From Candidatus Poribacteria bacterium (lineage in GTDB: Bacteria; Poribacteria; WGA-4E; WGA-3G), in the NCBI GenBank assembly GCA_963665235.2, contig CAXXLX010000001.1, forward strand, positions 1,056,001 to 1,120,000: 64,000 bases of DNA, read 5' to 3'. Each line of letters starts with the position of its first letter. The first letter of the stretch is position 1. The notes below the pieces were generated by a model that had not been told where the DNA came from, ran no database searches, and saw nothing but the letters and a program-made list of their open reading frames with translations. Made by a program: the position numbers and the translations under genes. Below, piece by piece: positions 1,382 to 27,580 of this stretch.

Positions 1382-1452
1382 AAATCTTCAGAGAATGTCT
1401 ACCATTTTTTCGGTTAATGGTAATTGGTTAGAGATTTCTTATATTTCTTTCT

Positions 1453-1577
1453 TTGGTTATTGGTTATTGGTTTATGGCAACCATTAGCAAGAGAAAGAGG
1501 ACACTGACGCGCTTCAGATATGTTCTTAGAATCACAACATCTTGCCAATCGCCAATCGCCAATCGCTAATTGCCAAA
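1453..1577. repeat. Heptamer-armed palindromic intergenic element, copy A
   Basis: (GGTTATT)n left arm, CTGACGCGCTTCAG core, (GCCAATC/GCTAATT)n right arm; overlaps the rsmE stop codon; ends approximate. Confidence 0.75.
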
Positions 1578-2285
1578 TTCGTAAGCGGCAATAGCGACTG
1601 CTGCGATTGCCGCGGTTTCTGTTCTCAAGATATTTGCCCCAAGTGTCACGGGTGCACACCCACTTTCAACAGCAGTTTGAATCTCTTTATCGGAGAATCC
1701 CCCTTCGGGCCCGATAAAAAGCGCGATAGATTCCGCCTTCGGTGTGCTTCGCAGCACCGTCTTGATATGCCGTTCTGTCTCATTTTCCCAGAAAATCAGG
1801 TTGAGAGCAAAGGCTTTACCCTGAACAAAGCAGTCCTCAAAACGTTGCGTCCGGGAGAGTTCAGGTATCCACGGACGTTTACACTGCTTCGCCGCAGCAA
1901 GGACGACGCGGTGCCAACGTTCGTATCGGTTTTGACTCGGTTGTTGCAGTGCGCGTTCGGTGTGCATCGGCACAATGTGTGTTACGCCGAGTTCAGTCGT
2001 TTTTTGCAGAATTAATTCCATTTTCCTATTCTTCGGTATACCCTGAAAGAGGATGAGACTGGGCTGTGCCTTTCGGTAAAATTCATGCTTCAGTATTTTC
2101 GCCTTTGTCTCATTTACATTGGAAGTCGTAACCGTTGCAACATAAACGTTCCCTTTTCCATCCATAATTTGGATAGTATCCCCCGGCTCAACCCGCACCA
2201 CATTTCGGAGGTGATGCTGTTCGCTACCGGTAATCGTGGCAAAATCGCCCTGGAGCTGAGTTGGGAGAACATAGGCCGTGTGCAT
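1566..2285 (-). CDS. rsmE: 16S rRNA m3U1498 methyltransferase
   Basis: HHLRNVVR, QKTTELGV, IGPEGGFS, LGANILRTETA motifs. Confidence 0.95.
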   Translation of the reverse strand: MHTAYVLPTQLQGDFATITGSEQHHLRNVVRVEPGDTIQIMDGKGNVYVATVTTSNVNETKAKILKHEFYRKAQPSLILFQGIPKNRKMELILQKTTELGVTHIVPMHTERALQQPSQNRYERWHRVVLAAAKQCKRPWIPELSRTQRFEDCFVQGKAFALNLIFWENETERHIKTVLRSTPKAESIALFIGPEGGFSDKEIQTAVESGCAPVTLGANILRTETAAIAAVAIAAYEFGN

Positions 2286-2295
2286 CCTGTCTCCA

Positions 2296-2970
2296 TTAGG
2301 ACGTTACCTGTTCCGGGACAGTGCGTAGTTTTTCGATAACCGCTTCCGGTTGTTGACTGCCGAAAATGGCCGTGCCAGCGACTAAAAGTGTCGCACCAGC
2401 CTGAATAGCCAGCGGTGCAATCTCCACCGTTACACCCCCATCCACAGAAATCTCAAGCGAGCCCCCCATTTCCTGAATGTGTCGGTGCAATATCGCTATC
2501 TTTTCCAAAGTCTGCCGTTGAAAAGTTTGTCCACCGAAACCGGGGTCAACGCTCATCGGTAGCACAAGGTTGAGGCTCGATAGATACGGGATGACAGTCT
2601 CAGTCGGTGTATTCGGTGAAAATGCAAGCCCGGCCTTAATGCCGCGCGCTTTAATTGCTGCAAGAACAGTTTCAATATCATCCGCACACTCAACGTGGAA
2701 GGTAATGTAGTCGGCACCCGCTGCAGCGAGGGCATCTATGTAGCGGAGTGGGTGCATTACCATGATATGGACATCAAAGGGTACCGTTGTTTGCTCTCGG
2801 ACCGCTGCAATAAAAGGTGGACTGATACCGAAGTTCGGAACAAATTCGCCATCCATAACATCAAAATGGAGCAAATTCGCACCCGCAGCCACAATCCTTT
2901 CCACCTCTTCCCCCAACCGGGTAAAGTCGGCAGCTAGCAGTGAGGGGGCAATCCTGGGTTTGTTGTCCAT
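2296..2970 (-). CDS. rpe: Ribulose-phosphate 3-epimerase
   Basis: IAPSLLAADF, HFDVMDGEFVPN, SVDPGFGGQ, VDGGV; start placed at MDNKP behind GGAGG. Confidence 0.95.
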   Translation of the reverse strand: MDNKPRIAPSLLAADFTRLGEEVERIVAAGANLLHFDVMDGEFVPNFGISPPFIAAVREQTTVPFDVHIMVMHPLRYIDALAAAGADYITFHVECADDIETVLAAIKARGIKAGLAFSPNTPTETVIPYLSSLNLVLPMSVDPGFGGQTFQRQTLEKIAILHRHIQEMGGSLEISVDGGVTVEIAPLAIQAGATLLVAGTAIFGSQQPEAVIEKLRTVPEQVTS

Positions 2971-2988
2971 TGATTCTTCCTCCAATGA

Positions 2989-3969
2989 CTAATGATAGAC
3001 AACTTCGTCTAATTTCTCATCATTTTCATAGATAATTACGCGTGTTTCGCCAAAAACGCGAACCCGTTTTTGTTCCAAGTCAATCACTGTGCCGGGTGCG
3101 TAAGATTCATCGACCTCAGTGCGTTCACCGTATCCATCAATGACAACGATTCTGACATGGCGTGACAGCTCACCCTCTTCACTCACCGTGTGCTTGTGGG
3201 GTAGCAGCCTTCCGATGTTTCGAGTTTCGCCTTGAACGCCACTGACCTCAAGCAAAATGAGGTCTCCGCTTTGGACAAGGTCCCCGCCTATCGGTTTATG
3301 CGTAATGACACCCCCCACGGGGATTTTCGGGTGCGGTTTATATTGAACCTCAACATGGAGCCCACCCTCTTCAAGTGCCGACACAACATCATCTATAGGT
3401 TGATTCTGAAGGTTCGGCAACTGAATGTACCGGGGCCGTGTTCCAAGACTCATCAATAGGTTAATAGAGCTTCGACGGCGTTTCCTGCTACCTTCTCCTG
3501 GCGTTTGAGCGATGACAGTATCCGGCGGATAACTTCCCGAGTGGACATAAGCCACCCGATTCGGCGTAAAACCAGCAGTTCGCAGGGTATCATACGCTGC
3601 ATCCTTTGATTTCCCTATCACAGACGGCACCAGAATCAACTCGGTGCCAATACTCACCGTGATTTCAACCGGTTGATACGCTTTGATTCTAGTCCCTGAT
3701 GGCGGTTTTTGTGAAACAATGTGTCCCTTCGGGATGTCCCCACTACTTTGCAGCTGAATTGGGGCCGCAATTTGAAGTCCAGCCTCATCAAGGCTTCGGA
3801 CAGCAGCGGGATACTCCATACCGAGCAGGTTCGGGGTCGGCACCTCGGGGCTCTTAATCCATTGCGGAATAATAACGAAGACCATTAGCAAGCCGATTAT
3901 CCCCACCAAAGTCAGACAGTACAAAATAACCTTAATAGTCGCCCACAAGGTTTTATTTACTACGTTCAT
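2989..3969 (-). CDS. Membrane-anchored PASTA-domain protein (three PASTA repeats)
   Basis: N-terminal TM helix, repeated P(N/S)(L/V)xG...V(I/V)xQxP...VS(L/I)G units; typical fmt-PASTA-rpe context. Confidence 0.85.
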   Translation of the reverse strand: MNVVNKTLWATIKVILYCLTLVGIIGLLMVFVIIPQWIKSPEVPTPNLLGMEYPAAVRSLDEAGLQIAAPIQLQSSGDIPKGHIVSQKPPSGTRIKAYQPVEITVSIGTELILVPSVIGKSKDAAYDTLRTAGFTPNRVAYVHSGSYPPDTVIAQTPGEGSRKRRRSSINLLMSLGTRPRYIQLPNLQNQPIDDVVSALEEGGLHVEVQYKPHPKIPVGGVITHKPIGGDLVQSGDLILLEVSGVQGETRNIGRLLPHKHTVSEEGELSRHVRIVVIDGYGERTEVDESYAPGTVIDLEQKRVRVFGETRVIIYENDEKLDEVVYH

Positions 3970-3976
3970 CTTGTTT

Positions 3977-4130
3977 CCGATGATATTAACCTATATATTG
4001 AAGAGCAGGCTTGTAGCCTGAAGCCTGTGCAATACTATGTATTTCACATCTTATACGGTTTGCAAGTTGCTTATAGAAAGCAACCAGGGTTCATCTACCA
4101 AAGCACGCAGAAAAATCCCGCGTGCGCCGT
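3977..4130 (-). ncRNA. Putative omegaRNA/reRNA scaffold of IS607 copy 1
   Basis: Non-coding right end conserved between both copies with a variable hairpin; location expected for TnpB guide RNAs; 5' boundary is a guess. Confidence 0.55.
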
Positions 4131-5637
4131 TCAAATCTCTGTCCATCTTGAGTCCTGTGCTATCTTTGATAACTTTAGCACCACCTAAGTTTTTGACAAT
4201 CTCACCTGTCCACGACACGGTTTTTGATGTGTATGCTTCGTTAACATCTACCACGATACATCCAGTTTCTTTCGCTTTATGCTTTAGAAACTGTTTAAAA
4301 CGGTAATGGGAGAGGGTCAACATTTGGCGGACGGTTTTCTTATGGAGTTTGCGTCCACTTTTACAAGTCTTATGAGAAGTCTCAAAAGTGGGGAGCAAGA
4401 TAATATCAAAGTTGTCGACAAGCCACCGTGCAACTTTCTTATGAAGTTCATCCACAAGGTTTCTAATCCGTTTTCTGATACGATTTGCGGCACGTCTCAT
4501 GTTCTTCTTTGCCTGTTGCTTAGTTGCTTTAGTCGCACGGGAGAGTAGGTCGTCAAGATATGAACAAAGTCTTTGAATACGATTGATTGCATGGTGTCCG
4601 AGCCATCCGAACCCATGTTCATGAAAATATGTCAGGAATGTCCTAACACCGGGGTCAAGTGCGACGACACGTCCGTTTGGTTTTCGCTTTCGTATCGTCA
4701 CACTATAACTGACACACAAATAATAGTGTGCGCCATCTTTGACCAAGCGGGAGTCTTTGATGTTTTCAGGGAGACGCTCACTCAGTCTAAGTTTTCCTAA
4801 TTTTGTGTGATAGACACCCTTTTCAGATATGGCAGCTTTGGGTATAAAGATGCTATCTGAAGGGGTTCGTTTAGATTTAAAAGAAACAGATTGAAACTGT
4901 CCTGTTTTCTGACATTTCTGCTTCGCTGCGCGAACGGCAAGACAAGCATCCCGAATAGCAACTGACTTAATTTGATATGGAACAGGTTTAGCCCAATCGG
5001 GTAAATCGTCAAGGATACCTGTCTTAATCGCTATCCAGTTCGCTTGTGTGTCCGTGTCATTCAACAAAGCAACCGTTTTGTTGTAGGTCCAACGTGCTGT
5101 GCCTATCCATTGACGCAGCGTCTCACGTTGTTCGGTTGTTGGATAAACTCTTATCTTCTTTGATTTGGTCACGGTAACTGCGGAGGCCGTGTAGTCTGCG
5201 ACTGAAGACGTGCAGGATGGCGAGAAGATCCGACGTGAGTTCTTCTTGTGGACTGTGTTCTGTTTGGTCAAGAACCACGAGTTCGCCACCGTTTTGTTCA
5301 ACGAGGTATCGTATAAGGTCGATACCGAAACGGGCGAGTCTGTCCCGATGGGCAATAACAACTTCGAGCTTATCACCTTGCATAAGCCTGTCCAATAAGG
5401 TTCTAAACCCTTTTCTTTTGAAGTTAAGGCCACTTCCGATGTCTCTGATGATTTCTGCTTCGGGGTAGATACTTCGCATATATGCGACTTGTCGTTCAAG
5501 GTCATCTCTTTGCTTGGTGCTTGACACCCGGCAATAGCAAACAGTGGTAACTGATTTGGATTTGCTTTTGATGTATCCATCAACATCGTAGCGTCTATGC
5601 CCGCCTCCTGTGCGGATAATATCAATCTTTCCTTCAT
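4051..5637 (-). CDS. tnpB: IS607 TnpB, Fanzor2-like, with long N-terminal extension overlapping tnpA
   Basis: RuvC-I ALDPG, IILLPTFET (P at canonical E), VNEAYTSKT, DRDLNGARGI; GGAG 8 nt before the ATG at 5637. Confidence 0.9.
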   Translation of the reverse strand: MKERLILSAQEAGIDATMLMDTSKANPNQLPLFAIAGCQAPSKEMTLNDKSHICEVSTPKQKSSETSEVALTSKEKGLEPYWTGLCKVISSKLLLPIGTDSPVSVSTLYDTSLNKTVANSWFLTKQNTVHKKNSRRIFSPSCTSSVADYTASAVTVTKSKKIRVYPTTEQRETLRQWIGTARWTYNKTVALLNDTDTQANWIAIKTGILDDLPDWAKPVPYQIKSVAIRDACLAVRAAKQKCQKTGQFQSVSFKSKRTPSDSIFIPKAAISEKGVYHTKLGKLRLSERLPENIKDSRLVKDGAHYYLCVSYSVTIRKRKPNGRVVALDPGVRTFLTYFHEHGFGWLGHHAINRIQRLCSYLDDLLSRATKATKQQAKKNMRRAANRIRKRIRNLVDELHKKVARWLVDNFDIILLPTFETSHKTCKSGRKLHKKTVRQMLTLSHYRFKQFLKHKAKETGCIVVDVNEAYTSKTVSWTGEIVKNLGGAKVIKDSTGLKMDRDLNGARGIFLRALVDEPWLLSISNLQTV

Positions 5638-5710
5638 TTGCTAATCTCCGTAAGTGGTCTGGGGTGTAATCCAATAGTTTGCTTGCTTTCTTTGCGGATA
5701 CATAAGTCAT
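5123..5710 (-). CDS. tnpA: IS607 serine recombinase transposase
   Basis: MerR-like HTH then YCRVSS..Q.DDLERQ, DIGSGLNFKRKG, HRDRLARFG, EEL.SDLLAILHVFS. Confidence 0.93.
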   Translation of the reverse strand: MTYVSAKKASKLLDYTPDHLRRLANEGKIDIIRTGGGHRRYDVDGYIKSKSKSVTTVCYCRVSSTKQRDDLERQVAYMRSIYPEAEIIRDIGSGLNFKRKGFRTLLDRLMQGDKLEVVIAHRDRLARFGIDLIRYLVEQNGGELVVLDQTEHSPQEELTSDLLAILHVFSRRLHGLRSYRDQIKEDKSLSNNRTT

Positions 5711-5716
5711 GTATAT

Positions 5717-5745
5717 ATTATAACACATTTTTACCGAAATGTCAA
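5717..5745 (-). promoter_or_regulatory. Sigma70-type promoter in IS607 left end
   Basis: TTGACA-17 nt-TATAAT; ATG 6 nt after the -10 box. Confidence 0.75.
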
Positions 5746-5785
5746 GAAAAACATAGATTTTTTGCTACTGTTAATCAACCTCGCG

Positions 5786-22012: not shown

Positions 22013-23878
22013 TTAAGGCTCAAATTCCCAAAAAAGAATAGTACCGTCCCAACTCCCACTAACTATAGTGTTCCCATCAGGACTAAACGACACGCTACTG
22101 ACATCACCCGTATGTCCTTTGAGTGTTTCGATAAGTTGCCTTGTGCTTAGGTTCCATAGACGAATAGTTTTGTCCACGCTCCCGCTAACTATCGTATTCC
22201 CATCCGGACTAAACGACACACTATTGACCGGACCCGTATGTCCTTTGAGTGTTTCGATAAGTTGCCCTGTGCTTGTGTGCCATAGCCGAATAGTCCAGTC
22301 CCCACCCCCACTAACAAGTATACGAGCATTCAAACTAAAAAAGGACACGCCATTGACCGGACCCGTATGTCCCATGAGTGTTCTGATAAGGTGTCCGGTG
22401 CCCGTGTCCCATAGACCAATAGTCCTGTCCGAACTCCCACTAACTATCGTCCTACCATCTGGACTAAACGATACACTAGTGACATCACCCATATCTCCTT
22501 CGAGTGTTTTGATAAGGTGTCCTGTTATAGCGTCCCACAGACGAATAGTATTGTCATCGCCCCCACTAACTATCGTCCTACCATCCGGACTAAACGATAC
22601 GCTACTGACATCACCCCCATGTCCTTCGAGTGTTTTGATAAGGTGTCCTGTTGTAGCGTCCCACAGACGAATAGTATTGTCATCGCCCCCACTAACTATC
22701 GTCCTACCATCCGGACTAAACGATACGCTAGCGACATCACCCATATCTCCTTCGAGTGTTTTGATAAGGTGTCCTGTTATAGCGTCCCACAGACGAATAG
22801 TATTGTCATCACCCCCACTAACTATCGTCCTACCATCCGGACTAAACGATACGCTTTCAACCCACCCTGTATGTCCTTCGAGTGTTCTGATAAGTTGTCC
22901 TGTGCTAACGTCCCATAGACGAATAGTATTGTCATCACCCCCACTAACTATCGTCCTACCATCCGGACTAAACGATACGTTATAGACACGCCTTGTATCT
23001 TCTGGGAGTGTTCTGATAATTTGTCCTGTGCTAACGTCCCATAGACAAATAGTATTGCCATCACCCCCACTAACTATCGTCCTACCATCCGGACTAAACG
23101 ATACGCTTTCGACCCACCTTGTATGTCCCGTGAGTGTTTTGATAAGTTTTCCTGTGTTCGTATCCCATAGACGAATAGTCTTGCCATCACCCCCACTAAC
23201 TATCGTCCTACCATCCGGACTAAACGATACGCTTTCGACCCACCTTGTATGTCCCGTGAGTGTTTTGATAAGTTTTCCTGTGTTCGTATCCCACAGTTGG
23301 ATAGGATTGTTATAACTCCCACTAACGATACTAACGATAGTATTCCCATCTGGACTAAACGACACGCTAATAACCAACTTCGGATCTCCCGTGAGTGTTC
23401 TGATAAGTTCTCCTGTCCTAATGTCCCATAGACCAATAGTTTTGTCCATACTCCCACTAACTACGGTGTTACCATCCGGACTAAACGACACACTAGTGAC
23501 ATCACCGGTATGTCCTGTAAGCACTCTGATAGGCTTTCCAGTATTTGTGTCCCATAGACGAATAGTCTTGTCATCACCCCCACTAACGATAGTATTCCCA
23601 TCTGGACTAAAAGACACGCTATTGACCGGCCCTGTATGTCCTGTAAATAGGTTAAGTTCTTCCCCTGTCTGAACATCATAAATCCAAATCCCGATACTAC
23701 CACCAACAGCTAACCGCGTGCCATCTGGTGAAAACCGTATCTCATTTATAGAACCTTTACCAAGACGGACTTTCGCCCCCTTTGGTAAGTTCCATTGTGT
23801 ATAGTCTACAGCGAAAATGTTTGGGGTAACCATTAGGAGCACAAACAAAATCGTTAGCATCAAAAACATAGTTCGCAT
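22013..23878 (-). CDS. Secreted WD40 repeat protein (about 14 repeats)
   Basis: Signal peptide, LPKGAKVRLGKG lead-in, tandem GH...V.SVSFSPDG.TIVSG..D.TIRLWD units on 126-bp DNA repeats. Confidence 0.95.
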   Translation of the reverse strand: MRTMFLMLTILFVLLMVTPNIFAVDYTQWNLPKGAKVRLGKGSINEIRFSPDGTRLAVGGSIGIWIYDVQTGEELNLFTGHTGPVNSVSFSPDGNTIVSGGDDKTIRLWDTNTGKPIRVLTGHTGDVTSVSFSPDGNTVVSGSMDKTIGLWDIRTGELIRTLTGDPKLVISVSFSPDGNTIVSIVSGSYNNPIQLWDTNTGKLIKTLTGHTRWVESVSFSPDGRTIVSGGDGKTIRLWDTNTGKLIKTLTGHTRWVESVSFSPDGRTIVSGGDGNTICLWDVSTGQIIRTLPEDTRRVYNVSFSPDGRTIVSGGDDNTIRLWDVSTGQLIRTLEGHTGWVESVSFSPDGRTIVSGGDDNTIRLWDAITGHLIKTLEGDMGDVASVSFSPDGRTIVSGGDDNTIRLWDATTGHLIKTLEGHGGDVSSVSFSPDGRTIVSGGDDNTIRLWDAITGHLIKTLEGDMGDVTSVSFSPDGRTIVSGSSDRTIGLWDTGTGHLIRTLMGHTGPVNGVSFFSLNARILVSGGGDWTIRLWHTSTGQLIETLKGHTGPVNSVSFSPDGNTIVSGSVDKTIRLWNLSTRQLIETLKGHTGDVSSVSFSPDGNTIVSGSWDGTILFWEFEP

Positions 23879-23935
23879 CAGGTTGCCGATGATATTAACC
23901 TATCTATTTCCGTGGAATACTATGTATTTCACATC

Positions 23936-25519
23936 TTAGACGGTTTGCAAGTTGCTTATAGAAAGCAACCAGGGTTCATCTACCAAAGCACGCAGAAATA
24001 TCCCGCGTGCGCCGTTCAAATCTCTGTCCATCGTCCGACCTGCGCCATCTTTGATAACTTTAGCACCGCCTAAGTTTTTGACAATCTCACCTGTCCACGA
24101 CACGGTTTTTGATGTATACGCTTCACAAACATCTACCACAAGACACCCCGTTTCTTTTGCTTTATGCTTAAGGAACTGTTTGAAACGGTAATGAGAGAGG
24201 GTCAGCATTTGGCGTGCGGTTTTCTTATGGAGTTTGCGTCCACTTTTGCACGTCATTTGAGAAGTCTCAAAAGTGGGGAGTAAGATGATATCAAAGTTAT
24301 CTACAAGCCAGCGTGCGACTTTCTTATGAAGTTCATCAATAAGATTGCGTATTTTGCGGCGAAGCCGTTTTGCTGCGTTTCGCATATTGCGGCGTTGTGG
24401 GCGTTTTGCTTTTGCAGCCCGGCTGAGTAGGTCGTCGAGATATGAACAAAGTCGTTGGATTTTATTGATAGCGTGGTGTCCAAGCCAGCCGAAGCCATCT
24501 TCACAAAAATAGGTGAGAAACGTTCTGATACCGGGGTCAAGTGCGACAACACGCCCGCTTGGTTCTCGCTTTCGTATCGTCACACTATAACTGACACACA
24601 AATAGTAGTGTGTGCCCTCTTTGACTAAGCGGGAGTCTTTGATATTTTCAGGGAGACGCTCACTGAGTCTAAGTTTTCCTAACTTTGTGTGATAGACACC
24701 CTTTTCAGATATGGCACCTTTGGGTATAAAGATAGACTGTTTATCGTTTTTCCGACTACGGAACTTCACGCATTGAAATGTGCTTCTCTGCTGATAGTCT
24801 ATTTTCGCGTTCTGGACAGCTTGACAGGCATCCCGAATAGCAACTGACTTGACTTGATAAGGAACAGCCTTCGCCCAATCGGGTAAGTCGTCAAGGATAC
24901 CTGTCTTAATCGCCATCCAGTTCGCTTTTGTCTCAGGCTGACGCAAATAGTCAATCGCTTTGTTATAGACAAAACGAGATGTGCCTATCCATTGACGCAG
25001 CGTCTCACGCTGTTCCGGTGTCGGATAGACTCTTATCTTCTTTGATTTTGTTACGGTAACTTCGGAGTCCGCGCAGTCTGCAACTGAAGACAGGCAGGAT
25101 TGCGAGAAGATTGGATGTGAGGTCTTCTTGTCGACTGTGTTCTGTTTGGTCAAAAACCACGAGTTCGCCAACGTTTTGTTCAATGAGGTATCGAATAAGG
25201 GCGATACTGAACCGGGCGAGACGAGCCCGATGGGCAATAACAACCTAGAGCTTATCACCTTGCATAAGCCGGTCCAATAAGGTTCTAACCCCTTTTCTTT
25301 TGAATTTGAGACCACTACCGATGTCTCTAATGATTTCTGCTTCGGGGTAGATACTTCGCATATACGCGACTTGTCGTTCAAGGGCATCTCTTTGGTTTGG
25401 GCTGGACACCCTGCAATAGCAAAGAGTGGTCCTTGGTTTTGATTTGCTTTTGATGGACCCATCAACATCATAGCGTCCATGTCCGCCTCCTGTGCGGGTT
25501 GTCCCAATCTTTCCTTCAT
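23936..25519 (-). CDS. tnpB: IS607 TnpB, Fanzor2-like, long N-terminus
   Basis: ALDPG, IILLPTFET, VCEAYTSKT, DRDLNGARGI; AAGGAG 8 nt before the ATG. Confidence 0.9.
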   Translation of the reverse strand: MKERLGQPAQEADMDAMMLMGPSKANQNQGPLFAIAGCPAQTKEMPLNDKSRICEVSTPKQKSLETSVVVSNSKEKGLEPYWTGLCKVISSRLLLPIGLVSPGSVSPLFDTSLNKTLANSWFLTKQNTVDKKTSHPIFSQSCLSSVADCADSEVTVTKSKKIRVYPTPEQRETLRQWIGTSRFVYNKAIDYLRQPETKANWMAIKTGILDDLPDWAKAVPYQVKSVAIRDACQAVQNAKIDYQQRSTFQCVKFRSRKNDKQSIFIPKGAISEKGVYHTKLGKLRLSERLPENIKDSRLVKEGTHYYLCVSYSVTIRKREPSGRVVALDPGIRTFLTYFCEDGFGWLGHHAINKIQRLCSYLDDLLSRAAKAKRPQRRNMRNAAKRLRRKIRNLIDELHKKVARWLVDNFDIILLPTFETSQMTCKSGRKLHKKTARQMLTLSHYRFKQFLKHKAKETGCLVVDVCEAYTSKTVSWTGEIVKNLGGAKVIKDGAGRTMDRDLNGARGIFLRALVDEPWLLSISNLQTV

Positions 25520-25593
25520 TTGCTAATCTCCTTAAGTGATTCGGGGTCCAATCCAGCATTTCCGATGCTGGACGGCGCGGATACATAAGTCAT
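25005..25593 (-). pseudogene. tnpA: IS607 tnpA pseudogene
   Basis: Frameshift a few codons after ATGACTTATGTATCC and premature TAG at 25245 where copy 1 has GAA; 3' end approximate. Confidence 0.85.
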
Positions 25594-25688
25594 ATATATT
25601 GTAACACAAATATATTGAAATGTCAAGAAAAATATAGATTTTATGCTACTGTTCCGCAACCTCCTTCTGTTTAGTCCAGCATGGACGA

Positions 25689-25865: not shown

Positions 25866-26021
25866 AAAATCCGCGAAATCCGTGTTCTCCGTGCTAATCC
25901 GCGATTCAGACAAAAAAACACAACATCACTTAATCCCAAAACCTTGACGCGCACACCTCTTAAAATCCGCGCAAATCCGATAAATCCGCGCAAATCCGAG
26001 ATTCAGACAACGCACGCCAAA

Positions 26022-26198
26022 TCCCTCTTCCCCTCTTCCATTCTCCCATTCTTCCCTTCTTCCATTCTCCCATTCTTCCCTTCTTCCATCCTTCCCCTCT
26101 TCCATCCTTCCCCTCTTCCATCCTTCCCCTCTTCCATCCTTCCATTCTTCCCTCTTCCATTCTTCCATCCATCCCTCTGACAAAAACTTTACACACCT
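26022..26198. repeat. Polypyrimidine octamer tract (TTCCATCC/TTCCCCTC/TTCCATTC)n ending in GACAAAAACTTTACACACC
   Basis: Directly visible; similar tracts at 37120-37145, 37262-37345, 42820-42875 and inverted near 45176. Confidence 0.88.
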
Positions 26199-26203
26199 CG
26201 CGC

Positions 26204-27580
26204 TCACAACAGTTGACTCTCCCACCATGAGAGATAATCTGCATCGCTTATATCGGGTGAAAGCCCACGCTTTTCCATACCCTGCCTGAAATTTTCAGCC
26301 ATGTGTTCATCCCAATAGGAGGTAACCTCTGGCGACTCCGGTGTTTCCCCCATATCCCCTGTCGCCTCTATCCACGTGTCCAGTTGTGCAGCCAGCTCAT
26401 CTCGAACCACCTCATAATTTCCATCAGCGGCTAGATTGTTAACCTCGTACGGGTCCGCCTGTAGGTCATACAGTTCCACCGCAGGACGGGTCTGTTGCAC
26501 GAACAGCTGTTGCGCCGGTGACAATTCGCCACTTTGCGAAAGCACCTGTAGCAGCGTCCACACCGGATATTGTAATTTTTTATACGAATTGAATTGCATA
26601 TAGGGCAGTTCAGGATGATAATTGCGAATGAGTTTATAGCGGTGCGTGCGAATACATCGAATCCGGTCATCGGTACCGTCACATCGGTCCCGCGCTGCGA
26701 AGATAGCCTTGCGCCGTGCTGCTTCAGGACCGAGGAAAATTTGTCCTTGCATATAGTCCGGTATTGGAATGCCAGCCAGCGACAGCGTCGTCGGCGTGAA
26801 ATCAACCCCACTGATAAGTGAATCATCGACAGTGCCGGGCTCAACCTGCCCTGGCCAGCGAACAATCAGCGGAATGTGAATACCGCCATCGTAGAGAAAT
26901 TGCTTGCATCGGACATGCGCACGCCCATGGTCGCTCATAAAAAAGACAACAGTGTTATCTGAGAGCCCCTCCGCGTCCAACCGTTCCAGAATTTGCCCTA
27001 CCTTCCGGTCCAAAATCTGGATACTTTCGAGATAAAGTGCCCAATCCTTGCGTGTAAGCAGATGGTCCGGATAGTAAGGCGGCACTTCCACATCATCCGG
27101 ATGAATTGGCCGTTCCGGGTCCGGTTTAAAAACGCGGTGCGTATCGGGAATGTTAATTTGGGCATAAAAAGGCTGTCCTTCCGGGCGTTCACGCCAATCT
27201 ATGCCATCAAAAGGCTGCTCACGTTTGAAGTTAAAATCGGTTTTACCGGGACGTTTATAGGGCGGGCCGGGGCTATTGCAAGTAAAATATCCCGCCTCTC
27301 GGAAGCAGTCAGTGATGAGCTGCATATCAGCTCGCAGCGGTTTATCCCGATTGCTCCGATGGTTATGAGCATCAAAATTGGTTTGATATGTCCCCGTAAT
27401 AAGCGTAGAGCGGCTCGGTGAGCAGACAGGACATGTAACAAACGCACTGGTATAACGCGTACCCTCCGCCGCCAGTCGGTCAATATTCGGCGTTTGCACA
27501 GCAGGTGTCCCGTAGCAGCCGAGTTCAGGCGAAAGATCTTCGCCATAAATCCAGAGAATGTTCGGTTGTTTCGCTGACAT
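26204..27580 (-). CDS. Formylglycine-dependent sulfatase
   Basis: PNILWI..ED, CSPSR, GKTD, SDHG; start at MSAKQ behind GGAGG. Confidence 0.93.
   Translation of the reverse strand: MSAKQPNILWIYGEDLSPELGCYGTPAVQTPNIDRLAAEGTRYTSAFVTCPVCSPSRSTLITGTYQTNFDAHNHRSNRDKPLRADMQLITDCFREAGYFTCNSPGPPYKRPGKTDFNFKREQPFDGIDWRERPEGQPFYAQINIPDTHRVFKPDPERPIHPDDVEVPPYYPDHLLTRKDWALYLESIQILDRKVGQILERLDAEGLSDNTVVFFMSDHGRAHVRCKQFLYDGGIHIPLIVRWPGQVEPGTVDDSLISGVDFTPTTLSLAGIPIPDYMQGQIFLGPEAARRKAIFAARDRCDGTDDRIRCIRTHRYKLIRNYHPELPYMQFNSYKKLQYPVWTLLQVLSQSGELSPAQQLFVQQTRPAVELYDLQADPYEVNNLAADGNYEVVRDELAAQLDTWIEATGDMGETPESPEVTSYWDEHMAENFRQGMEKRGLSPDISDADYLSWWESQLL

Follow-up and report, generated by a model that had tools for sequence, protein, structure and literature searches.

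Two IS607-family elements lie on the minus strand of a 64,000-nucleotide stretch of a Candidatus Poribacteria genome (assembly GCA_963665235.2, contig CAXXLX010000001.1, positions 1,056,001 to 1,120,000; hereafter the window, with positions counted from its first letter), and both raise the same question: is the long open frame that leads from inside tnpA, the recombinase gene, into the nuclease gene tnpB a part of the nuclease, and, if so, where did that part come from? A sequence-only reading of the window had proposed that this frame encodes an N-terminal domain of TnpB, overprinted on tnpA, outliving it, and resembling that of the eukaryotic and viral Fanzor2 nucleases.

Copy 1 (3977..5778, minus strand) carries a tnpA gene (5123..5728, minus strand) for a 201-residue IS607-type serine recombinase with a MerR-like helix-turn-helix (HTH) and a resolvase catalytic domain, which scores 176.5 bits against the NCBIfam model NF033518 'IS607 family transposase' (cut-off 110) and matches the Pfam families Resolvase (PF00239, E 1.1e-19), MerR and HTH_17. 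Its long TnpB open reading frame (ORF; 4051..5637, minus strand) encodes 528 residues of a TnpB with a rearranged RuvC-II motif, that is, of the bacterial Fanzor2-like or 'pro-Fanzor' type, and opens with an ATG (5635-5637) that sits 91 nt into tnpA, in the +1 frame relative to it. The dual-coding stretch (5123..5637, minus strand) therefore holds tnpA codons 31-201 and the tnpA stop together with TnpB codons 1 to ~171. Within the tnpA codons, 8 nt upstream of the TnpB ATG, stands a Shine-Dalgarno-like GGAG (5646..5649, read on the minus strand), matched by AAGGAG at the equivalent site of copy 2. The latter element (23912..25661, minus strand) is 84% identical to copy 1 and retains an intact TnpB ORF of 527 residues (23936..25519, minus strand), with tnpA broken by an insertion or deletion near its start and by a TAG stop; the GAA-to-TAG change behind that stop amounts in the TnpB frame to a silent serine change plus K>R (ISSKLLLP to ISSRLLLP). 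Copy 2 also reads GTA where copy 1 has GTG at V156, the usual N-terminus of TnpB, and so has no start codon there. On all these points, from the 527-528 open codons with ~171 of them in tnpA to the Shine-Dalgarno-like motifs and the state of copy 2, the sequence-only reading had described the window correctly. In light of the comparisons presented below, we consider it very probable that TnpB in this group starts at an ATG ~91 nt into tnpA and gains ~155 codons in the +1 frame, with the same DNA encoding the catalytic domain of TnpA and the N-terminal region of TnpB.

Conservation of the second frame within tnpA

The genome as a whole contains six full copies of the element and one truncated copy, at 84-93% identity. 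Every full copy retains the long open TnpB frame, and in four of the six tnpA is broken. As these copies are closely related, the weight of the argument falls on other genomes. A breadth sample of 78 TnpB-related loci in genome contigs, 74 of them evaluable, covers five or more phyla, with hosts among the Poribacteria, many cyanobacteria, Latescibacterota, Chloroflexota and Pseudomonadota. In every locus examined the TnpB frame is +1 to that of tnpA, and the open stretch upstream of the TnpB core runs to at least 140 codons in 65 of the 74, to 90-139 in five and to fewer than 90 in four; stops are thus seldom found in the extension frame across homologous elements, as the sequence-only reading would have it. 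Across the 67 loci with a near-full tnpA match, the +1 frame contains eight stops in total, confined to five loci, and the +2 frame 571. When loci were instead picked by TnpA similarity alone (79 loci, 68 with an intact tnpA), 61 of the 68 had no +1 stop, and the seven exceptions included four without a downstream TnpB and one with a decayed TnpB. The TnpB-less tnpA loci L248, L277, L299 and L304 are close relatives with one +1 stop each, as would be expected once the second frame is no longer needed.

Synonymous resampling of tnpA, which keeps the TnpA protein and the codon usage, leads to an expectation of 5.9-10.4 stops per locus and a probability of finding none of at most 0.003 in 37 non-redundant loci; because these had been picked beforehand for an open frame, it is the open-frame fractions given above, and not the zero count, that constitute the result. 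A different IS607 family in related Poribacteria served as a control: its tnpA has 11-16 stops in the +1 frame at each of eight loci, and its TnpB frame is open for at most ~52 codons inside tnpA. In that family (L308, L310, L311, L322, L323, L331) tnpA is ~225 codons long and intact copies have a TnpB of canonical size, in a frame of 363-404 codons; some Poribacteria genomes yield 12-13 matches to it, with no deep overlap. Among relatives of the window element, the frame is open even where TnpA is only 45-60% identical. At L015, L019, L020, L023 and L067 the open TnpB frame reaches still further back, to include an ATG at tnpA codon 9, and nearly the whole of tnpA is overlapped.

The extension also bears marks of constraint at the residue level. 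In an alignment of 91 sequences W82 is invariant and P80, L93, P96, S120, W121 and F122 are at least 90% conserved, a level matching that of the catalytic residues D328, E467 and D501. Furthermore, third-position entropy in tnpA stands at 1.3-1.5 over codons 1-60 and goes down to 0.77-1.0 over codons 101-200, as compared to 1.2-1.6 at TnpB third positions outside the overlap, so that tnpA is restrained in its synonymous variation where the conserved part of the extension lies. Some observations pull the other way. The tnpA frame dominates the overlap, with TnpB second positions being the most variable (entropy 0.98 vs. 0.41 and 0.72), and among the copies in this genome non-synonymous to synonymous changes number 75:36 when read in the frame of TnpB and 56:54 when read in that of tnpA, a substitution pattern that fits tnpA better than TnpB and in which only two independent lineages of tnpA loss are represented. 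The own-genome substitution counts were accordingly dropped as a test for selection on the extension: none was seen, tnpA dominates and the tnpA-loss lineages are two. A count of 'stop' events in the consensus background was likewise discarded as an artefact of multi-hit codons and of the truncated copy. Judged by its conservation across genomes, the extension is a conserved coding region and not a chance open frame.

Kinship with the N-terminal domain of Fanzor2

The N-terminal domain (NTD) of Fanzor2, composed of a RuvC-R part and a thumb, has to our knowledge been described as unique among solved TnpB-type structures, and the N-terminal extensions of Fanzor proteins have so far been treated as later acquisitions. 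The window protein is, in its body, a TnpB of the kind to which Fanzor2 is related. Its canonical part (WED/REC, RuvC and TNB; 4051..5166, minus strand) starts with KSKKIRVYP at residue 158; the whole protein scores 126 bits against the TnpB family profile NF040570 (cut-off 100), and Pfam places HTH_OrfB_IS605 at residues 157-194, Cas12f1-like_TNB at 444-508 (E 3.9e-15) and, at 27.4 bits and below the cut-off of 30.5, OrfB_IS605 at 309-407. The RuvC residues are D328 (4654-4656), within the RuvC-I DPG of ALDPGVR, E467 (4237-4239), in NEAYTSKT, and D501 (4135-4137), while the position of the canonical RuvC-II Glu is taken by P416 (ILLPTFET). All three align to the catalytic region of ApmFz2, the structurally solved Fanzor2 of Acanthamoeba polyphaga mimivirus, with D328 and E467 invariant and D501 at least 90% conserved in the 91-sequence alignment. 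The DPG, the Pro at the RuvC-II Glu and the Glu before YTSKT, all picked out from the window alone, are therefore present in both translation and alignment.

According to Yoon et al. (10.1101/2023.08.09.552727), the Fanzor2 group is defined by a DPG RuvC-I, replacement of the canonical RuvC-II Glu and a shifted catalytic Glu, and the window TnpB, with its DPG and shifted Glu, belongs to this rearranged-RuvC-II group. The bacterial rearranged-RuvC-II TnpBs described there share with it the DPG, the Glu displaced towards the C-terminus and an IS607 serine recombinase as partner; the review PMC13565253 names such proteins TnpB2, pro-Fanzor or RIIr. As the host is bacterial, the window protein is a bacterial Fanzor2-like TnpB and not a Fanzor2. 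Its C-terminal part (4051-4300, residues ~446-528) has no CxxC pairs, reading YTSKTVSWTGE...KDSTGLKMDRD as opposed to YTSKTCGxCG, and the C4 zinc finger is missing; the first CxxC is also missing in 64 of the 65 rows of the cluster of bacterial and IMG/VR sequences within the 91-sequence alignment. Both CxxC pairs are present in giant-virus relatives, and the cysteines are found in the copy on a Nostoc sp. PCC 7120 plasmid as well; the window clade has lost the zinc-finger cysteines.

Upstream of this body, the extension falls into two parts. Residues 1-77 (5407..5637, minus strand) form a variable N-terminal tail that is predicted to be disordered, whereas residues 78-157 (5167..5406, minus strand) contain the conserved motifs PYW (80-82), LxLP (93-96), KT..SWF (115-122) and IFS (137-139). 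An AlphaFold2 model computed from the 91 sequences, with no templates, has a mean predicted local distance difference test score (pLDDT) of 81.2, with 92 at residues 81-90, 87 at 121-130 and less than 50 at 1-77. The ~155-residue domain of the sequence-only reading must thus be narrowed: a conserved part of ~80 residues (78-157) with a predicted fold holds up, and residues 1-77, neither conserved nor predicted to be ordered, fall outside it.

Several lines of comparison point to ApmFz2 as the counterpart. The best solved relative of the window TnpB is its structure 9b0l, with E 1.9e-24 for the single sequence and 1.3e-67 for the 91-sequence profile, positions 114-510 of which align to residues 76-509 of the 9b0l chain; ISDra2-type TnpBs align only from position 159. 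A profile of the extensions pairs '..SWF' with T81-N82-S83-W84-Y85 of ApmFz2, and a viral protein from a locus devoid of tnpA (L172) gives a single unbroken alignment to 9b0l that begins at chain residue 52, with the pairings LFIPNGD/IYVPNKD and TNSWF/TNSWY. With the cores removed, an hhalign comparison of 28 bacterial extensions with eight tnpA-less viral N-termini gives a probability of 94.3% and E 1e-7 over 53 columns. In a VIA structure comparison of the AlphaFold2 model, the best match is again 9b0l (Z 28.7, root-mean-square deviation 3.7, 407 residues), with model residues 78..518 superposed on chain residues 53..518; 8h1j and all other TnpB or Cas12f chains listed align only from model residue ~154. 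The published NTD of ApmFz2 starts at chain residue 53, and comprises the RuvC-R part (65-91), of which Asn82 and Ser83 touch the omegaRNA pseudoknot, and a basic 'thumb' (109-130) placed on the target DNA (PMC11832414). By analogy with this cryo-electron microscopy structure, the PYW-helix/LxLP/NSWF part of the window protein would pack onto RuvC and touch the omegaRNA pseudoknot, and the basic stretch before KSKKIRVYP would act as the thumb on the target DNA beside the target-adjacent motif (TAM).

The match has its weak sides, which count against equating the two domains. A profile of close relatives missed the ApmFz2 NTD and aligned to 9b0l only from position 150; a first AlphaFold2 model, built from 34 sequences and since replaced by the 91-sequence one, had a mean pLDDT of 57 with residues 1-152 unfolded; the sequence matches to the ApmFz2 NTD hang on a few motif residues; the VIA output gives the first and last aligned residues only; and the P[FY]W motif was not located in ApmFz2, whose residues 1-52 are unresolved in the structure. 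With these points considered, residues ~78-157 are, in aligned sequence and predicted structure, the counterpart of the ApmFz2 NTD, and the likeness of the extension to the N-terminal region of Fanzor2, as proposed in the sequence-only reading, is now backed by the hhalign probability, the hidden Markov model alignments and the superposition of the model on 9b0l.

The window protein and ApmFz2 (L79) share the DPG RuvC-I, the Glu shifted to before (Y)T(S/T)KT, and an N-terminal domain ahead of the KIRxYP start with an NSW[FY] motif aligned to Asn82/Ser83, and ApmFz2 is likewise carried by an IS607-type element, as stated in a passage of PMC10530073. Unlike ApmFz2, the window protein has a bacterial host and lacks the four zinc-finger cysteines, and its N-terminal tail is not known to be a nuclear localisation signal. 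Canonical IS607/ISDra2-type TnpBs (8h1j, 8iaz) have the same WED/REC/RuvC/TNB body (Z 23-27 over model residues ~154-518) but, unlike the window TnpB, no N-terminal domain.

Probable overprinting origin, and persistence without tnpA

The extension is also found in loci where tnpA has gone. Eleven tnpA-less ORFs on contigs of giant-virus metagenome-assembled genomes (MAGs) or on other viral contigs all have 11-33 stops in the former tnpA frame, and nine of the eleven (L191, L157, L173, L177, L219, L172, L187, L224 and L225) retain P[FY]W in front of KIRxYP, several of these with LxP and SW[FL] as well. At other viral loci the +1 overlap with tnpA persists, among them loci on a 344,691-bp contig (L137/L149) and in giant-virus MAGs (L144/L166, L181); where measured, the extensions span 182-202 codons. 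Together with the broken copies of this genome and the relative on Nostoc sp. PCC 7120 plasmid alpha, the tnpA-less viral relatives show that the extension outlives tnpA, as the sequence-only reading had claimed from copy 2.

The Nostoc plasmid (pCC7120alpha, NC_003276.1) carries, at 1444..3105 (L337), a 553-codon ORF with the extension motifs, while tnpA is reduced to a 95-residue C-terminal remnant; the PLSDB gene table (RefSeq) annotates it as a 392-residue 'transposase' (1930..3105), and the Trichormus variabilis homologue is annotated at 403 residues.

The overlapped part of tnpA encodes the resolvase catalytic domain (PF00239), a family named well beyond IS607, so that of the two frames that of TnpB is the younger, which is what overprinting means; the origin proposed for the domain thus follows by logic. 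Along this line, TnpB would have extended upstream into tnpA and its N-terminal domain would have arisen de novo by overprinting, to be kept later as tnpA decayed or vanished, both in the broken copies seen here and in the tnpA-less viral Fanzor2-like genes. A quick tree of TnpB cores, rooted by the other IS607 TnpB family, places giant-virus sequences at the base of the ingroup and the window within a Poribacteria clade, inside a 71-row cluster of bacterial and IMG/VR sequences (support 89); the loci closest to the window TnpB are in Candidatus Poribacteria genomes, at 75-82% identity. Since the overlap occurs on both the viral and the bacterial sides, it is older than their split. In this tree the window clade is a sister of the viral group and not its demonstrable ancestor, and of the earlier claim that it belongs to the clade ancestral to Fanzor2 the group membership stands, while the ancestry of the window clade itself does not. 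The cyanobacterial relatives found here fit the statement in review PMC13565253 that an IS607 lineage of cyanobacteria may have given rise to Fanzor2. Taken together, the reading that we favour, and hold to be probable, is that the NTD of Fanzor2 was born de novo in bacteria over the catalytic-domain gene of an IS607 recombinase and then became an integral part of the nuclease, in contact with RNA and DNA, and that giant viruses inherited it, first still overlapping tnpA (L137/L149, L144/L166, L181) and later alone.

The young product of an overprinted gene is generally largely disordered, with short conserved motifs. As in the overprinted genes of viruses and mobile elements, a younger frame here lies over an older gene, which itself varies less at synonymous sites; unlike the usual case, the new frame encodes no small protein of its own but a domain joined to an enzyme that already existed, and it persists once the older gene is lost. 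If the origin outlined above is correct, it dates the Fanzor2 NTD to bacteria and names its source, and provides a rare and well-documented instance of a functional enzyme domain made by overprinting, one that can be followed from dual-coding elements through to genes standing alone. By the same overlap, nuclease and transposase would be bound together genetically, with loss of either by deletion or recombination harming the other. The arrangement offers a testable account of how the two genes remain together in this lineage of IS607.

IS607 elements and rearranged-RuvC TnpBs have been described before, as has the relationship to Fanzor2 (10.1101/2023.08.09.552727 and PMC13565253), and a slight tnpA/tnpB overlap in IS607 has been noted in PMC9956272. 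A full-text literature search, with supplements and subscription papers outside it, found no description of an N-terminal domain encoded inside tnpA, nor of TnpB in connection with overprinting. The passages of preprint 10.1101/2023.08.09.552727 on overlap and extension are silent on a domain inside tnpA, its supplementary tables, which might list long proteins, lying outside them, and review PMC13565253 makes no mention of 'overlap' or 'N-terminal'. A 2026 cyanophage preprint on a 'dual-coding tnpB locus' was set aside, since it concerns an antisense ORF and hence a different arrangement. The long forms, for their part, sit unremarked in databases, given that an extension-only profile matches 1150 cluster representatives at E<=1e-3. 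Public annotation can cut the domain off, as on the Nostoc plasmid with its 392 residues within a 553-codon ORF, and bacterial members cloned from such clipped annotation for genome editing may miss the part that contacts the guide RNA and the target DNA.

Start of translation and ends of the element

Where, then, does the protein begin? The first ATG of the TnpB frame falls at tnpA codons 29-32 in 29 of the 37 non-redundant loci, at codon 48 in four, at 37 in one and at 9 in three, and in most of the 37 a stop precedes this positionally conserved ATG by 0-5 codons. The loci also have internal ATGs ahead of residue 78, at positions that vary, so the start is placed only provisionally, and some viral relatives have tails ~55 residues shorter with all motifs kept. 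We therefore read residues 1-77 as a variable tail, whose main role may be to reach a start codon, and residues ~78-157 as the domain.

Certain data tell against initiation at the upstream ATG. A start-like codon (ATG, GTG or TTG) near the usual N-terminus, at positions 143-157, is present in 20 of the 37 loci, which makes a short TnpB isoform possible; a Shine-Dalgarno-like motif lies at -15..-6 in only 13 of the 37; and short contigs from four RNA-library runs of one study, 90-99% alike over most of the element, reveal neither strand nor start, may include DNA and were not counted as evidence. Use of the upstream ATG is a prediction from the sequence. The same start-like codons speak for an ordinary TnpB that begins near KIRVYP, beneath an upstream frame that is open but outside the working protein and dispensable, as do the RefSeq annotations of the Nostoc PCC 7120 and Trichormus relatives from internal starts (392 and 403 residues) and the apparent lack of constraint on residues 1-77. 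However, in 17 of the 37 loci the last 30 codons ahead of the usual N-terminus lack any ATG, GTG or TTG, the frame is open against an expectation of 6-10 stops, its motifs are conserved like catalytic residues and persist without tnpA, and ApmFz2, whose structure includes this domain, aligns to the extension; we therefore regard the ordinary start as improbable.

Slightly less probable still is that the extension has no start of its own inside tnpA and is reached by a programmed +1 ribosomal frameshift, yielding a fusion of the N-terminal HTH of TnpA to TnpB. Exactly such a fusion occurs naturally in this genome, outside the window, in copy G000:C1:1045784-1047532 (locus L005), where a 1-nt deletion 41 nt into the overlap brings the start and HTH of tnpA into the frame of TnpB and gives an open frame of 550 codons, and in a few relatives the open TnpB frame reaches as far back as tnpA codon 9. 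But in most loci a stop stands 0-5 codons ahead of the conserved ATG, the tnpA-less relatives make the domain without tnpA, and no slippery site was seen, though no search was aimed at such sites. That the long frame is an unselected by-product of tnpA codon or amino-acid composition, or of close-copy ancestry, is hardly credible: the own-genome copies are indeed 84-93% identical with only two independent lineages of tnpA loss (c3 and c4 differ at 2 positions), but the resampling probabilities, the +1 stops throughout the other IS607 tnpA family, the openness of the frame at 45-60% TnpA identity and the +1 stops that TnpB-less tnpA loci begin to gain all contradict it. Initiation at the ATG inside tnpA, with the extension as a working part of TnpB, accordingly remains the reading that we prefer.

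The ends of copy 1 were set where the flanks of the six genomic copies diverge: at the left end (5778) the flank closes with AGG and the element begins TTGATTAACAGTAGC, and at the right end (3977) the element closes with GGTTAATATCATCGG. GG stands at both junctions, and beyond the common ends the flanks of the six copies are unrelated. The TAM of the element might lie in the GG-containing left junction, and the guide RNA would come from the right end. The 3' end of tnpB with the right end (3977..4200, minus strand) presumably provides the omegaRNA scaffold, as its counterparts do in the TnpB and Fanzor2 loci treated in PMC10530073; this region matches no Rfam family at threshold, and its fold z-score of -1.17 is not significant. 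Just inside the right end, copies 1-4 have a GC-rich hairpin, AGGCTT...AAGCCT (window ~3995-4030), in place of which copies 5 and 6, window copy 2 being one of them, have a shorter sequence.

An adjoining gene for a 326-residue protein (2989..3969, minus strand) has its ATG 8 bp downstream of the right end of copy 1; the element might alter expression of this neighbour, or its guide might target the leader of that gene. Copy 2 is flanked on one side by a gene for a 621-residue WD40-repeat protein (22013..23878) and on the other by a low-complexity stretch (25926..26244) with overlapping ORFs rich in EEWK/GR repeats on both strands.

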